Assembly (NCBI GenBank): GCA_951406725.2
Contig: OX597815.1
Coordinates: 139,438,001-139,502,000 of the forward strand
Direction of reading: 5' to 3'
Origin: Octopus vulgaris
Lineage: Eukaryota
Length of the DNA: 64,000 bases
In this document: in pieces, positions 3,441-24,750 of the stretch
How the letters are laid out: each line of letters starts with the position of its first letter
How positions within the stretch are numbered: position 1 is the first letter of the stretch
The notes under the pieces: model-generated
What the model was told of the DNA's origin: nothing
The model's input: the letters and a program-made list of their open reading frames with translations, nothing else
Database searches by the model: none
Position numbers and translations under genes: made by a program

Positions 3441-3680
3441 CAAGTAAGTACAATCTCGCTGATTTTCAACGACGCTTTACCAAGCATTTATGATGCAGCT
3501 ATAGAACAAGGTGATATCTTTTACTATCTTGGAAGTTTTTTTTTCCTACAAATTTGTTTCCTAACTAATGCAAAACACAGAATTGGATGAACCCATTAAG
3601 CACTAGCAAAAGGAGTAAGGCGATTTTCAAGAGCAAAGATCTAGTCCTCCTAAAAGCTGACGATTTATCAAGCTCCGATT

Positions 3681-4517: not shown

Positions 4518-5027
4518 AATAAAACTTCCATTGCACTCTTTCTTCCGTATTAATCATTTAGAATGCATGCATGCATACATACATACATACATACATACAT
4601 ACATACATACATACATACATACGTACGTACGTACAGACATACATATGCAATGTGTGCGTACTGATGTGTGTGTATGTATAATTTTTTAATTATCACTATA
4701 AACTTGGAAGCTGTTCTTAATAAATCATAGGAATTTAGGCATCAACAATACTATAGTAAGGATAATTTTACAAATGTTTTGCACACAGGCGCAGGCGTGG
4801 CTGTGGGGTAAGTATAGCCTTGGGCCTTCTGAGTGGATTTGGTAGAGAGAAACTGAAAGAATCCTGTTATATGTATATATATATATATATATGTTTATAT
4901 TATATAGAGGGTACTATTATTCATAGGTACCGCACGCTAGGAGGGACTCTTGCAGTCAAAACTACTAAAATAAACAAATTGTACCGAATGCAAAACTTCA
5001 AAGCAAGTCATTTAAAAACAGAATTTA

Positions 5028-5091
5028 GTTACATATCACCTGTGATTTCGCAATCAATGCAGGATATGCATTCTATGCTCTTCAGTGCAAC
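5028..5091 (-). ncRNA. Canonical type-I hammerhead ribozyme (family A, inverted arm)
   Basis: Reverse complement of 5476-5539. Confidence 0.85.
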
Positions 5092-5475
5092 GAACTCAAG
5101 TGCTTAATGGGTTCATCCAACGAACTCTAGTGCTTAATGGGTTCATCCAATTCTGTGTTTTGCATTAGTTTTGAAGCAAATTTGTAGGAAAAAAAAAGAA
5201 AAATTAACTTCCAAGATAGTAAAAGACATCACCTTGTTCTATAGCTGCATCATTATAAAGATTTTATCCTTAATTTTAAATTTATATTTTTCACCGGAAT
5301 AGTTCAATACTGAATTTTTGTTCCGAATAGGCAGATTGTTCACCGAAATGCATTGCGAATAAGCCCGCCATTTTCATAGATATGTAAAGATAAACATTCG
5401 TACATGCTACGACGAATTCCACGGTTGGCTGTCGGGTATGCTATATTGTGTTTTTTCCTTACATGTCTTGAGTTC

Positions 5476-5539
5476 GTTGCACTGAAGAGCATAGAATGCA
5501 TATCCTGCATTGATTGCGAAATCACAGGTGATATGTAAC
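5476..5539 (+). ncRNA. Canonical type-I hammerhead ribozyme (family A)
   Basis: Stem I GTTGCA/TGTAAC; core CTGAAGA; stem II GCA...TGC with inner AATGCA/TGCATT; GAAA; stem III TCAC-AG-GTGA; cleavage triplet AUA. Confidence 0.88.
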
Positions 5540-5775
5540 TAAATTATGTTTTTAAATGACTTGCTTTGAAGTTTTGCATTCGGTACAATTTGTTTATTTT
5601 AGTAGTTTTGACTGCAAGAGTCCCTCCTAGCGTGCGGTACCTATGAATAATCGTAGCCTCTATATAATATAAATAAATATTTTCAAAGTGGAAAAATTTA
5701 CAGATTTTTTCTCTTACGAGGTTTTTCACGCTAACTATTGATAATTTCTTATAAAGATTTTATCCTTAATTTTAA

Positions 5776-5807
<32 letters not shown>

Positions 5808-17039: not shown

Positions 17040-18420
17040 TGTAATTTGTTTGGAACAATAAAGATTCAAAATTCATATTTATCAACGTTTCCAGGTTATT
17101 TCAACATCCTCTTCAGGGCATGGAGTGATGTCTTCTGTACTGTCTCTTTTTATAGTGGACGGCTTTGTTTCAGCAAACCTTAAGCCAGAATGTTGTTTAT
17201 GTAAACTTTATAGCCAGAAGATGACTGTTAGAACTTTGGAGATTCACGTCATCAGATTTATATCTTGTTCTTTATGATTCCATGTCACTAAATTATACTT
17301 TGATAATCACTGGTGCCGTTCTATCTTCCTGTGATGTGTGTGTTGTTTAGTTTGATAATTACGTCTTTTGATGAGATATAAGCATTGCTTCCATAATCAA
17401 TCATCTATGACTGTAGATATTTAAAAAGTATAGAAATATTATCTGTTAATATTTTTCTACCTGGATTTGTTTCATTGTGTGCTGTGTGTTGCAATTGCTC
17501 CTTATGCATGCATGTTCGGCCTGTAACAGAGTGTTCTACATGTCCAGTCAATGCAATGATTACAGTTGTGAAGTTTGTAAGTATCGCTTTAACAATCAAC
17601 TTCATACTAGTTGTAGTATACAAATCAGACGACGGTGAAAATATAAGACGGGTTTAGAGAGCAACTCAATACTAACATTCCAGATTGAAAACAATATTAA
17701 TATGTACATCATTTACATTATTTACAGTTGACGGATTTTTCCCTCATCTTATTTGTTGTTAACACAACGTTTCGGCTGATATACTCTCCAACCTTCATTA
17801 GGTGTCTTGGGGAAATTTCGAACCTGGGTTCTCATTCCTAAGGTATTTTTCGATAATAATGACATTAAAAAATACCTTAGGAATGAGAACCCAGGTTCGA
17901 AATTTCTCCAAGACACCTGATGAAGGCTGGAGGGTATATCAGCCGAAACGTTGTGTTAACAACAAACAAGATGAGGACAAATATCCGTCAAGTGTAAATA
18001 ATGTACATAATTCCTCATCTCTTAAATATAGAACTGAATAATATGACTCCATTGCTGGACATAAACAGATTAAAAGCAACAGCTATATTGCATCATTATA
18101 CACAAAATACACAAATAAATGCATATACCTATACGTAGACATCAAATGTCCATATGCCAACAAAATGTCAGTGGTAAAAACCACTTCTTAAGAGACTATT
18201 TAGATTCTCTTTCACAAATAAAACGCAAGGTAAATAAATTCATCCAATAAACACTAATCAACAAATGGATATTCAAATTCAAACTAGTTGACCAAGCGAC
18301 AAAAATATAATGCAACAAATACATTAGACAATTCTTCTACTAAAAATAAACACATTACGTACAAAAAGTACACTATGGATAAAATACATGTTAGGTATAG
18401 ATCACAAAAACGTATAATAA
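17040..18420 (-). mobile_element. Old Penelope-like element: endonuclease, 3' UTR and HHR on minus; inverted RT fragment on plus
   Basis: Minus: ...HKEQ...NISIL...RLIMEAMLI (GIY-YIG-like end) then CTGAAGA...GAAACGTTG at 17083-17116. Plus: ESNSILTFQIENN..PLLDI...SLYTKYTNKCIYLYVDIKCPYANKMSVVK, resembling the PLE RT thumb. Confidence 0.55.
17701..18037 (+). mobile_element. Palindromic PLE pseudo-LTR module with hammerhead
   Basis: ~145-bp inverted arms (17701-17849 / 17866-18010); HHR 17912-17957: GACAC-CTGATGA-A-GGCTG..CAGCC-GAAA-CG-TT-GTGTT; the left-arm core is mutated to CTAATGA. Confidence 0.8.
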
Positions 18421-21251: not shown

Positions 21252-23306
21252 GTCCACACCCCTCGCACTCCTACAATTTACTTCCTCCCCAAGATCCACA
21301 AACCTAACAACCCTGGCCGCTTCATCGTCTCCGCCTGTAACTGCCCCACCGAACTCATCTCCAGTTATCTTAACCGTGTCCTTGCCCCCTAGTCGATTCC
21401 CTCTCCTCTCATATCCATGACACCAGCCATGCTCTTCGTTTGTTCGACTCTTTCTCCTTCCTTCCTGGCCCCTCTAAACTTTTCTTCATTCGTGACATCG
21501 AGAGTCTATACACGGTGATCCCTCACCACGAGGGGCTGCGTGCACTCCAACATTTCCTTGACCTTCGACCCAACCCCCAACCTGACACATCCGCACTCCT
21601 TCGTCAGGCCAAACTTGTCCTCTCATGTAACTGCTTCTCGTTCGCGGGTGATTTTTACCAGCAGTTCTCGAGGTTAGCCATGGGAACGAGAATGAGCTCC
21701 AACTATGCGAACCTATTCGTTGGTTAAGTTGAGGCCCAAATATTCTCAAGTGTCACTGGTCCCACTCCTGAACTATACGGTAATTATACTGACGACTGTT
21801 TCAGTGCGACCTCACTCTCCCGTGTACATCTAGACTCCTTCCTCTCTTTTGTCCAATCTTTCCATCCTGCCCTCCACTTCTCCTGCACTATTTCCGACAC
21901 CTCGGCTACCCTCTCGACATTTCAGTAGCATTCATCACTCCACTCTTACCACCTCTATCCACTACAAACACACAGACTCACACTCTTACCTCAACTTCTC
22001 CTCCTCACATACCAAGCTCTCTATCCCCTATTCCCAATTCCTTTGTCTACGCAGGCTCTGTAGTGACAACCATGACTTTGAGACTCAGTCTTAACTCATG
22101 GTTCTCCACTTCATCCTACGTGGATATACCCTCACCAGTATCCACACCGCCCTTGCCAGAGAACGTTCTGTAAACCATGCATCTGCTCTTTTCCCCTGTA
22201 CCCGCCCCGCCGTCACCCGTCTCCCGTTTCCCCTCACCTACCACACCAACACCCTACCTCTCCAACGCACCATTCTCCGAGCTTTCCGGCTTCGTCAGTC
22301 CGACCCCCCCCCACATCAGACATCTTCCCTAACCGACTCCTCCCCTCATTCAAACGAGCCCACAACCTACGAGAGCTCTTAGCCCAGAGTTTTCCCTAAC
22401 CCAACCTCCCAACACGGCTGGTTCCCCTGCTCCCGCCCACGCTGTCGCACTTGCCCTTACCTCTCCAATACCACCCTCCTCACAGGCACCCATCATCGAC
22501 CCTTTAATATCACTGACACCTTCATCGGCACTTCTAGCAACATCATCTCCTCCGTCGTTACCTCACCCCTACACATTCCATAGCCAAATAATCCTACACA
22601 TCCCATCCCTTCACTCCTACTCACCTTCTGCCTTCAACCCTCTCTCTTCATCGTCACCCCTCCCTCTTTACCTCAACCCTACACATTCTAACCCCACCAT
22701 CCCTATACATCCCATCCCACCCCCACCCATATCTTATACCCCCGCCCTTGCTTCCCCCACTCTCGCCTCTCCCACATCCCAACACCTCCACACCACACAC
22801 CACCACAGCACCACACCACAAACCACCATCCCGCACACCACCATACCACACCATATAACACTTCCCCGCACACACTAGCACTGACCACTTCCTACCACCC
22901 GCACCAGCGCACACACTAGCACTGATCACTTGCCAACACCTACACCATCATCCACACACCTACACATGCACACATGCACACGTCAAGGTCACCAGTCCCC
23001 TTCTACACGCACATACACGGTCTCACACACGCACGTACATCTTCGTAGTGGGATCGTCACTACTTTATTATCTTCCCTTCTTCCCAGCTCTCCCATGTGA
23101 CCACTCTGTCCGGCATTCGCCATGATAGATCACTAGCCACTAAACCTTTTCTTTTTTCCCTCCCTATTTATTTCTGTGTTTCTTTCTGTCGAAGAGCGTA
23201 GGCTTTCTAACGTAAAAGACTTTCTAACTTCCCGAGCGTTAAACTAATACATCCGTTTGTTGTTTATACAACCGTCCTACGTCTTTTGTTTTATGTAAAT
23301 TCTCAA
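21249..23306 (+). mobile_element. Decayed 5'-truncated Penelope-like retroelement (RT, Cys linker, start of GIY-YIG, C-rich 3' region)
   Basis: PRTPTIYFLPKIHKPNNPGRFIVSACNCPTE; SLYTVIPH; LAMGTRMSSNYANLFVG; YTDDCF; YKHTDSHSYL; SIPYSQFLCLRRLCS; CSRPRCRTC. Stops and frameshifts present; (TA)n on both sides. Confidence 0.92.
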
Positions 23307-23590
23307 TATGTATATATATATAGATATATATATATATATTTAGCAATTAAGGACAACTTCTTAATAAGGAAAACTTAACAAGAAATTATCGGGTAGATAG
23401 CGTGAAAAATCTCATAAGAGAAAAAATTTCGAAAATAATTCTTTCTTATTGAACATATTAAATTTATATATAGAGGGCATTATTATACATACATGCCACA
23501 CGCTAAGAGGGACAAAATTAGTCATTTCTACCAAAAATTTTACTAATCCCACCGAATGCAATTTTTCAAAGTAAGACATTTAAAAATATG

Positions 23591-23637
23591 GACTTGTATC
23601 ACCTGTGATTTCATACCTCTGTATTCATCAGCAAGTC
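23591..23637 (-). ncRNA. Canonical type-I hammerhead ribozyme (family B)
   Basis: GACTTG-CTGATGA-ATAC-AGAG-GTAT-GAAA-TCAC-AG-GTGA-TA-CAAGTC on the minus strand. Confidence 0.9.
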
Positions 23638-23934
23638 TGGACGCATCATAAATAAACGACCCTACATCGTCAAAGCCGGGCAGCCAACTGACCAACATCA
23701 ACGACGCACATGGGTTAGTTTACATATATTACATCCGGTAAATGGCAGACTTTTACGAATTGCATTTCGGGAAAGGAAAAGTTTTTTCGGAATAAAAATT
23801 TAGCAATTAAGGACAACTTCTTAATAAGGAAAACTTAACAAGAAATTATCGGGTAGATAGCGTGAAAAACCTCATAAGAGAAAAAATTTCGAAAATAATT
23901 CTTTCTTATTGAACATTTATTTATGATACGTCCA

Positions 23935-23981
23935 GACTTGCTGATGAATACAGAAGTATGAAATCACAGGTGATACAAGTC
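23935..23981 (+). ncRNA. Canonical type-I hammerhead ribozyme (family B, inverted arm)
   Basis: GACTTG-CTGATGA-ATAC-AGAA-GTAT-GAAA-TCAC-AG-GTGA-TA-CAAGTC; all three stems fully paired. Confidence 0.9.
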
Positions 23982-24104
23982 CATATTTTTAAATGTCTTA
24001 CTTTGAAAAATTGCATTCGGTGGGATTAGTAAAATTTTTGGTAGAAATGACTAATTTTGTCCCTCTTAGCGTGTGGCATGTATGTATAATAATGCCCTCT
24101 ATAT

Positions 24105-24174
<70 letters not shown>

Positions 24175-24178
24175 TATA

Positions 24179-24750
24179 TTTAATTTAAAAATAAGGATAA
24201 AATCTTTATAAGAAATTATCAGTAGTTAGCGTGAAAAACCTCGTAAGAGAAAAAATCTGTAAATTTTTCCACTTTGAAAATATTTGTTTATATTATATAG
24301 AGGGTACTATTATTCATAGGTACCGCACGCTAGGAGGGACTTTTGCAGTCAAAACTACTAAAATAAACAAATTGTAGCGAATGCAAAACTTCAAAGCAAG
24401 TCATTTAAAAACAGAATTTAGTTACATATCACCTGTGATTTCGCAATCAATGCAGAATATGCATTCTATGCTCTTCAGTGCAGCGAACTCAAGACATATA
24501 AGAAAAAACACAACATTACATACCCGACAGCCAACTGTAGAATTCGCCGCAGCATGTACGAATGTTTATCTTTACATATCTATGAAAATGGCGGGCTTAT
24601 TCGCAATGCATTTCGGTAACAACTTGCCTACTCGGAACAAAAATTCGGTATTGAACTATTCCGGTGAAAAATATAAATTTAAAAATAAGGATAAAATCTT
24701 TATAAGAAATTATCAGTAGTTAGCGTGAAAAACCTCGTAAGAGAAAAAAA
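24179..24750 (-). mobile_element. Non-coding hammerhead retroelement family A, ~1.15-mer
   Basis: ~75-bp direct repeat 24182-24256 / 24676-24750 (period ~494); HHR on minus at 24421-24484; (TA)n on both sides. Confidence 0.85.

Follow-up and report, generated by a model that had tools for sequence, protein, structure and literature searches.

Hammerhead-bearing repeats of Octopus vulgaris are non-LTR retrozymes with insertion ends of the Penelope type

Two related families in the window

The window, by which we mean the whole 64,000-nucleotide stretch of Octopus vulgaris contig OX597815.1 that was analysed, contains insertions of two repeat families, A and B, each carrying hammerhead ribozyme motifs. 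Their parts are listed below, with 3'-end sites given as distances past the predicted hammerhead cut.

4893..5100, minus strand: short inverted arm of the second A insertion; 3' end at site 1 (+141)
5028-5091, minus strand: hammerhead of this short inverted arm (descriptor scan)
5101..5252, plus strand: filler of ~150 bp between the arms of the second A insertion
5253..5776, plus strand: long arm of the second A insertion, ~30 nt longer than a monomer; 3' end at site 2 (+242)
5476-5539, plus strand: hammerhead of this long arm (descriptor scan)
23340..23916, minus strand: long arm of B, 577 nt, one 460-nt monomer plus ~117 nt; 3' end at 23340, site 2 (+257)
23340..23460, minus strand: "tail" of B, between 3'-end site 1 (~+135) and site 2 (+257)
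23591-23637, minus strand: hammerhead of the long arm of B, predicted cut after 23597 (descriptor scan)
23916..24112, plus strand: short inverted arm of B, ~197 nt; 3' end at site 1 (+135)
23935-23981, plus strand: hammerhead of the inverted arm of B, predicted cut after 23975 (descriptor scan)
24113..24179, no strand: (TA)n tract, common target of B and the adjacent A copy
24180..24750, minus strand: A copy, a 494-nt monomer extended by 74 nt; 3' end at site 2 (~+247), position 24180
24421-24484, minus strand: hammerhead of this A copy, predicted cut after 24427; stem I contains one C-A mismatch

Self-BLAST shows that B (23340-24112) is a head-to-head composite whose long and inverted arms are joined 5'-to-5'; the hammerhead at 23935-23981 belongs to the inverted arm. 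The A copy at 24180..24750 has a single orientation, with (TA)n on both sides. An earlier note on this DNA had described periods of 494 bp for A and 460 bp for B, (TA)n flanks and a relationship between the families, and we confirm all of these (A and B are ~72% alike). Its view of the copies as simple monomers of slightly more than unit length is correct for the 24180 copy, whereas B and the second A insertion (4893-5776) are inverted two-arm composites. Likewise, the terminal direct repeats that it described are present in the 24180 copy (74 bp, 24182-24255 = 24676-24749) and in B (~117 bp), but reach just ~30 bp in 4893-5776. A credible ORF is indeed absent: the 112-aa antisense frame of the 24180 copy extends to at least 100 aa in just 5 of 22 copies.

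The filler of the second A insertion has two matches genome-wide. Its part at 5127-5252 repeats, in inverted orientation (89%), unique flanking sequence at 3491-3606, 1.5 kb off, and the filler looks as if the template had been switched to neighbouring DNA while the element was inserting. We rejected it as the end of an ORF from a Penelope-like element (PLE), since its sequence is that of the local flank. A short internal duplication is also found within it. Elsewhere in the window, a decayed PLE reverse transcriptase (RT) remnant lies at 21261-22556 (plus strand), ~800 bp upstream of B and not joined to it, and a near-perfect inverted repeat with arms of ~40 bp lies at 17811-17907, matched by unrelated miRNA models only.

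All five arms in the window have one hammerhead each and none has a tandem pair, so no window copy could free a unit monomer by two cuts. For the same reason, the window copies fall outside the definition of an "active" retrozyme by Li et al. 2026. They are likely dead ends.

Hammerhead motifs and RNA folding

Five motifs in the window match the type I hammerhead descriptor completely, whereas the scan returned 0 from each of 30 random sequences matched in composition. The open helix is stem I, which makes the motifs type I rather than type III. As the earlier note had stated, the GAAA, the stem III UCAC-AG-GUGA and the AUA cleavage site are identical between A and B, the core differs solely at N7, and stem I is rewritten (GUUGCA/UGUAAC versus GACUUG/CAAGUC). 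Its description of a complete hammerhead in every copy holds as far as the five motifs go, but the 24180 copy carries the C-A mismatch in stem I. Rfam models gave no hammerhead match, either with the whole window or with the two elements alone. In folding predictions, the hammerhead fold in isolation lies 3-6 kcal/mol above the minimum-energy fold. For helix III, a 12-bp dimer duplex is predicted at -11.2 kcal/mol and the lone hairpin is not predicted, so the monomer-competent hammerheads suggested in the earlier note are no more than a possibility.

Covariation was analysed in thirteen hand-picked subfamily representatives. RNAalifold returned the hammerhead unprompted, with changes on both sides in all 4 pairs of stem II and in 5 of the 6 pairs of stem I. 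None of 500 shuffles reached the score of the whole structure, although relatedness of the representatives inflates this shuffle test, and in slid controls the paired fraction drops from 94% to 27-47%. Such strong covariation implies that cutting matters to the element. Site 1 is enclosed by an additional conserved stem, formed between +97-103 and +193-199.

The monomer as a whole is predicted to be ~67% paired. Circularised sense monomers fold with z scores of -4.9, -6.3 and -8.1, and antisense ones with 0.0, -3.1 and -3.3 (25 shuffles each); the linear strand gives z -6.9. Predicted pairs are preserved by 26 of 40 inherited variants and by 47 of 138 private ones (p 0.0009, a raw value with respect to transition bias); when unpaired sites are counted too, p is 0.05.

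Genome-wide distribution and subfamilies

Searches of the 2.8-Gb genome (227 contigs) with the core and stem III UCAC-AG-GUGA returned 660 matches, against 0 for the control; exact motif matches number 114 for B and 181 for A. A sister subfamily, J, has stem III UCAC-U-GUGA, a unit of ~481 nt and 475 cores genome-wide (control 0). A and B are thus two among many subfamilies, with monomers of 460, 481 and 494 nt, a GC content of 0.33 and no conserved ORF. These genome-wide data support the retrozyme identity proposed in the earlier note: a type I hammerhead, a short, non-coding, self-paired monomer and head-to-tail units. The family is real, young, non-autonomous and of the non-LTR retrozyme kind, and its RNAs would probably cleave and circularise.

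Room for at least two tandem hammerheads exists in 7 of the 89 sampled A/B-type elements. Subfamily J forms dimers to tetramers, with arms running 0.1-4.2 units, and also a 15.6-kb insertion with 31 tandem hammerheads (G000:C1:64639650-64655250, L237-L253). This array, a candidate source locus, is flanked by TA and has an inverted arm ending at site 1 as well as a site 2 end like those of A and B. Among its units, 15 of 30 are identical and some variants recur in non-adjacent, distant units, so the array may have grown after insertion.

Contigs of four sequencing runs presumed to be RNA were aligned to B. The deepest ones in run X1 carry subfamily J alleles (3 of the listed differences were checked by eye), and one of them bridges the hammerhead region, a result that bears on the existence of J and not on its expression, strand, level or circularity. 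Runs labelled as four other organisms (X11, X12, X14, X16-X20) contain 0.23-0.40 of the words, so related species probably harbour relatives of the family. Two pattern matches in viral contigs had no pairing stem I and were rejected as chance.

Some further loci are noted here. One A insertion with its flank occurs at three nearby places within G000:C1:205.69-205.88 Mb (L114, L115, L116), probably by segmental duplication. Other hammerhead mini-families have stem III UCAUUAAUGG, UUGGAACCAA or CUCGAG (L097-L102, L092:5681-5738, L112:1334-1730, L064, L100); in L112, two such motifs lie at a distance of 353 nt.

Our literature searches listed no paper on the A/B family or on two-site ends in retrozymes; repeat libraries may hold the family. 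In the main text of an octopus repeat annotation (PMC13282606), the words "hammerhead", "ribozyme" and "retrozyme" are absent.

Insertion ends and inverted composites

Published PLE insertions are partial tandems in (TA)n targets; they include a copy that is inverted and 5'-truncated, and one of their ends bears a tail of 30-40 bp (PMC8557442, PMC3846280). A PLE protein studied in vitro cleaves the two target strands and extends each of them, and it starts at two positions inside the RNA, which delimit the tail (PMC11167929). We analysed the ends of 89 elements at 88 loci, picked by hammerhead pattern and mostly the first listed on contigs C1-C3; 5 duplicate loci were dropped and clusters below 150 nt ignored.

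The outer 3' ends fall into two windows in 126 of 133 cases; these windows, drawn after the data had been seen, make up less than 9% of the monomer. Site 1 lies ~+135-140 past the cut and site 2 at ~+245 (A) or +257 (B). The 5' ends are scattered, and the cut site has 3 of the 130 no more than 4 nt away, against ~2.5 expected. The circularly permuted endpoints that the earlier note had named as a check are therefore seen at the 5' side, but not at the 3' side with its two fixed sites. Its proposal of TA targeting is supported: (TA)4 or more adjoins 122 of the 133 3' ends, against a background of 6%.

An inverted 5'-truncated copy is present at the 5' end of 44 of the 89 elements. Five of these composites have one off-site end, and 37 of the 39 others pair site 1 with site 2 (p 1.4e-9 versus 50%), as do 14 of 15 composites in a set selected for B. 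In the same 37 of 39, a tail of 105-120 nt is present at one end only. Arm junctions mostly overlap by 1-7 nt, and the sampled elements include partial tandems with variable 5' truncation, as in PLE insertions. With this PLE-type anatomy at ends across the genome, the dependence on PLEs that the earlier note had assumed is supported, the enzyme presumably being that of a PLE, and we regard PLE-type mobilisation of the family as very well founded.

The head-to-head forms might also have arisen by self-priming or fold-back of DNA, with tandem units made by satellite expansion at the DNA level. Self-priming on an antisense template has been proposed for inverted structures of PLEs (PMC3846280), and the long array could plausibly have been shaped by later unequal exchange. 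However, among 38 two-arm composites there are 13 in which each arm contains at least 30 nt absent from the other: such arms need two priming events and cannot be fold-backs of one another. The B-selected set has 0 of 15 such cases, its long arms spanning the whole unit. Fold-back also leaves unexplained the rule of one site per end and the sense-strand specificity of the structure, and we consider it very improbable.

Autonomous Penelope-like elements and the partner search

The genome contains two young PLE families with RT and GIY-YIG domains, L217 (locus G000:C1:38875500-38885400) and L091. Both appear to be Neptune-like, judging from an upstream Cys motif and using the label of PMC8557442. 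In the young PLE with a 4271-bp unit, 40 of 40 scored copies are 100% identical over 281 bp. Complete inverted composites of the two families follow the same site 1/site 2 rule (5 of 5 and 2 of 2), and their tails are 30-45 nt long. Both also have an upstream ORF of ~360-430 aa before or overlapping the 775-781-aa RT and GIY-YIG frame (L091:906-4590; L217); the one such ORF scanned gave no Pfam match of note. An optional, frameshifted ORF1 is known in some PLE types (PMC8557442, figure legend).

Our search for a partner scored 150 of 6136 GIY-YIG candidates. The autonomous PLEs sampled, both young families included, had neither a homologous pseudo-LTR nor a tail of 105-120 nt. The 4271-bp PLE is a weak candidate partner: it shares the +140 position of site 1, but its tail is 30-45 nt long and it has no homology to A/B. 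The 781-aa PLE is another, with ends in ...AAAT that resemble both sites; the resemblance is AT-rich and weak, and the tail is 38 nt. By eye, the pseudo-LTR of the latter (L091:5560-5610) contains what we take to be a minimal hammerhead, with U3/A8 for C3/G8.

Could the copies simply be 5'-truncated pseudo-LTRs of an ordinary coding PLE? Their anatomy is that of PLE insertions (PMC8557442, PMC3846280), and the fraction of candidates scored leaves space for such an element outside the sample. Nevertheless, what lies 5' of the start sites is the previous monomer, up to 2.2 units of it and without an ORF; an RT and GIY-YIG ORF is absent from A/B elements, and profiles of the sampled PLE ends gave no match. 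PLE remnants occur near 8 of 126 loci, none of them placed as ORF plus pseudo-LTR (L049 and L163 were read by eye, the others judged by strand and position). Attachment of the remnants near L049 and L163 was rejected because a microsatellite lies between remnant and element. With 0 of 126 loci having an ORF placed for a pseudo-LTR, the outcome that the earlier note had named as speaking against its reading, ordinary pseudo-LTRs attached to a coding PLE, was not seen, and the pseudo-LTR explanation is strongly disfavoured.

Template of reverse transcription

At recurrent sites, passes and arms of one insertion differ 7-20 times less than insertions do from each other: recurrent differences per site are 0.001 within versus 0.021 between insertions for B, and 0.003-0.004 versus 0.023 for A (arms below 92-93% identity were excluded). 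Private variants that occur in every tandem pass number 26 across 19 elements and extend over up to 4-5 passes in L260 (this count excludes L121, a double insertion). Such sharing favours a single-unit bottleneck, as has been proposed for the template (PMC4209133, PMC7229834). We also find support for copying through the ribozyme site, which the earlier note had implied: in 135 crossings of the cut site, no indel lies 5 nt or less away. On a linear monomer that had been cut, the enzyme would halt at +1; the template was therefore a circle or uncut RNA.

Nine private variants lie at sites covered both by the two arms and by tandem passes; 5 of them occur in every pass, whereas the other 4 do not. 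Of these 4, three are restricted to the first-copied pass of both arms (L020, L255, L257) and one is arm-specific; in L040 the two arms come from two lineages. It is therefore probable that multimers, or two molecules, served as templates in some cases, and three sites point to dimer or linear multimer templates.

These three variants, along with the recurrent variants in the 31-unit array, are what would be expected if the same PLE-mobilised element were copied mostly from linear RNA, uncleaved or multimeric, with homologous template jumps regenerating its length and the hammerhead serving another step. Published in vitro work points the same way: uncleaved RNA was the main substrate of a PLE protein and hammerhead mutants still inserted (PMC11167929), and 8 of 9 Xenopus retrozyme dimers were uncleaved (10.64898/2026.07.22.740005). 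Against this stand the 26 private variants common to all tandem passes, the scar-free crossings and the strong hammerhead covariation; stops at the cut site were not seen. We consider mostly linear templates unlikely and take the template to have been, with good probability, mainly a circular monomer.

Proposed mechanism

A and B are probably retrozyme copies that the RT/endonuclease of an autonomous PLE put into (TA)n, mostly off circular monomer RNA. In this cycle, loci with at least two tandem hammerheads, which are common in J, would be transcribed, the hammerheads would excise the 460-494-nt monomer and a host ligase would close the circle, as is known from other retrozymes (PMC7229834). 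With the two strands of a (TA)n tract nicked by the PLE protein, one cDNA per nick would be made, from the two fixed internal sites ~140 and 245-257 nt past the cut. Each cDNA could run back round the template for 0.1 to more than 2 units in A/B, and for 4 and perhaps 31 in J, before the two were joined at their growing ends via few-base microhomology or filler. Of this cycle, the end positions, the one-site-per-end rule, the identity within insertions and the absence of an attached ORF were observed; cleavage, circles and the enzyme are inferred.

A more specific version is tentative: a PLE enzyme dimer might carry out rolling-circle reverse transcription, with both (TA)n strands priming on one RNA circle and up to 31 units made per event. 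The start sites would be held together by RNA folding across the 105-120 nt between them. If true, this would bring the PLE tail, head-to-head inversion and the birth of retrozyme arrays into one mechanism.

Comparison with known systems

The earlier note had suggested an undescribed system. The kind is known, and non-LTR retrozymes have already been described in a mollusc (PMC7229834), circles having been shown in coral, mussel and axolotl (PMC7229834, Cervera and de la Pena 2020). A 2026 preprint regards non-LTR retrozymes as non-autonomous PLE derivatives (10.64898/2026.07.22.740005, Li, Clavereau and Pollet). A and B resemble metazoan non-LTR retrozymes in their type I hammerhead, their short, low-GC (33%), non-coding and self-paired monomer, the occurrence of monomers, dimers and a long array, the presence of PLEs in the genome and the circle proposed as an intermediate. 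Their monomer of 460-494 nt is longer than retrozyme RNAs of 170-400 nt (PMC7229834) and within the 51-972 bp range of Li et al. 2026 (10.64898/2026.07.22.740005). Unlike metazoan non-LTR retrozymes, A and B are nearly all dispersed insertions of less than a dimer. Homology to PLE pseudo-LTRs was reported for 24 of 57 Xenopus families (10.64898/2026.07.22.740005), versus none found for A/B among the PLEs sampled. Fixed two-site 3' ends and inverted arms, as in A/B, are not described for metazoan retrozymes in the accessible parts of these two sources (PMC7229834, 10.64898/2026.07.22.740005).

With endonuclease-bearing Neptune-like PLEs, A and B share 5' truncation, partial tandems and an inverted 5'-truncated copy (PMC8557442, PMC3846280), as well as the optional one-end tail, the (TA)n target and starts downstream of the hammerhead (PMC8557442, PMC3846280, PMC11167929). 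They differ in having no RT/endonuclease ORF, a tail of 105-120 rather than 30-40 nt, and a canonical hammerhead with a stem III of 4-5 bp, whereas the PLE form is minimal and palindromic (PMC8557442, PMC3846280, PMC11167929). MRC1 of Chlamydomonas, a non-autonomous PLE, is likewise non-coding, with head-to-tail copies and PLE-type ends; MRC1-type elements, however, have a 3' end similar to that of their autonomous partner, and most Chlamys elements have no hammerheads (PMC8557442). Plant LTR retrozymes are also hammerhead-bearing and non-autonomous, and have circular RNA, but their type III hammerhead, LTRs and Gypsy partner have no counterpart in A/B (PMC4918200), in whose elements LTR plus internal-region anatomy was not seen.

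Movement of animal retrozymes by way of circles and enzymes borrowed from PLEs has been hypothesised in print, on grounds of co-occurrence and homology. Here the insertions themselves bear the PLE signature, as a counted rule of one start site per target strand, and their sharing of mutations speaks to the template. What sets A/B apart within the known kind is the long tail, the mostly dispersed copies and the lack of a homologous partner among the sampled PLEs. With intact, very young autonomous PLEs and a young array-bearing subfamily in one genome, the questions of template, partner and tail length can be tested in an in vitro system that already exists.
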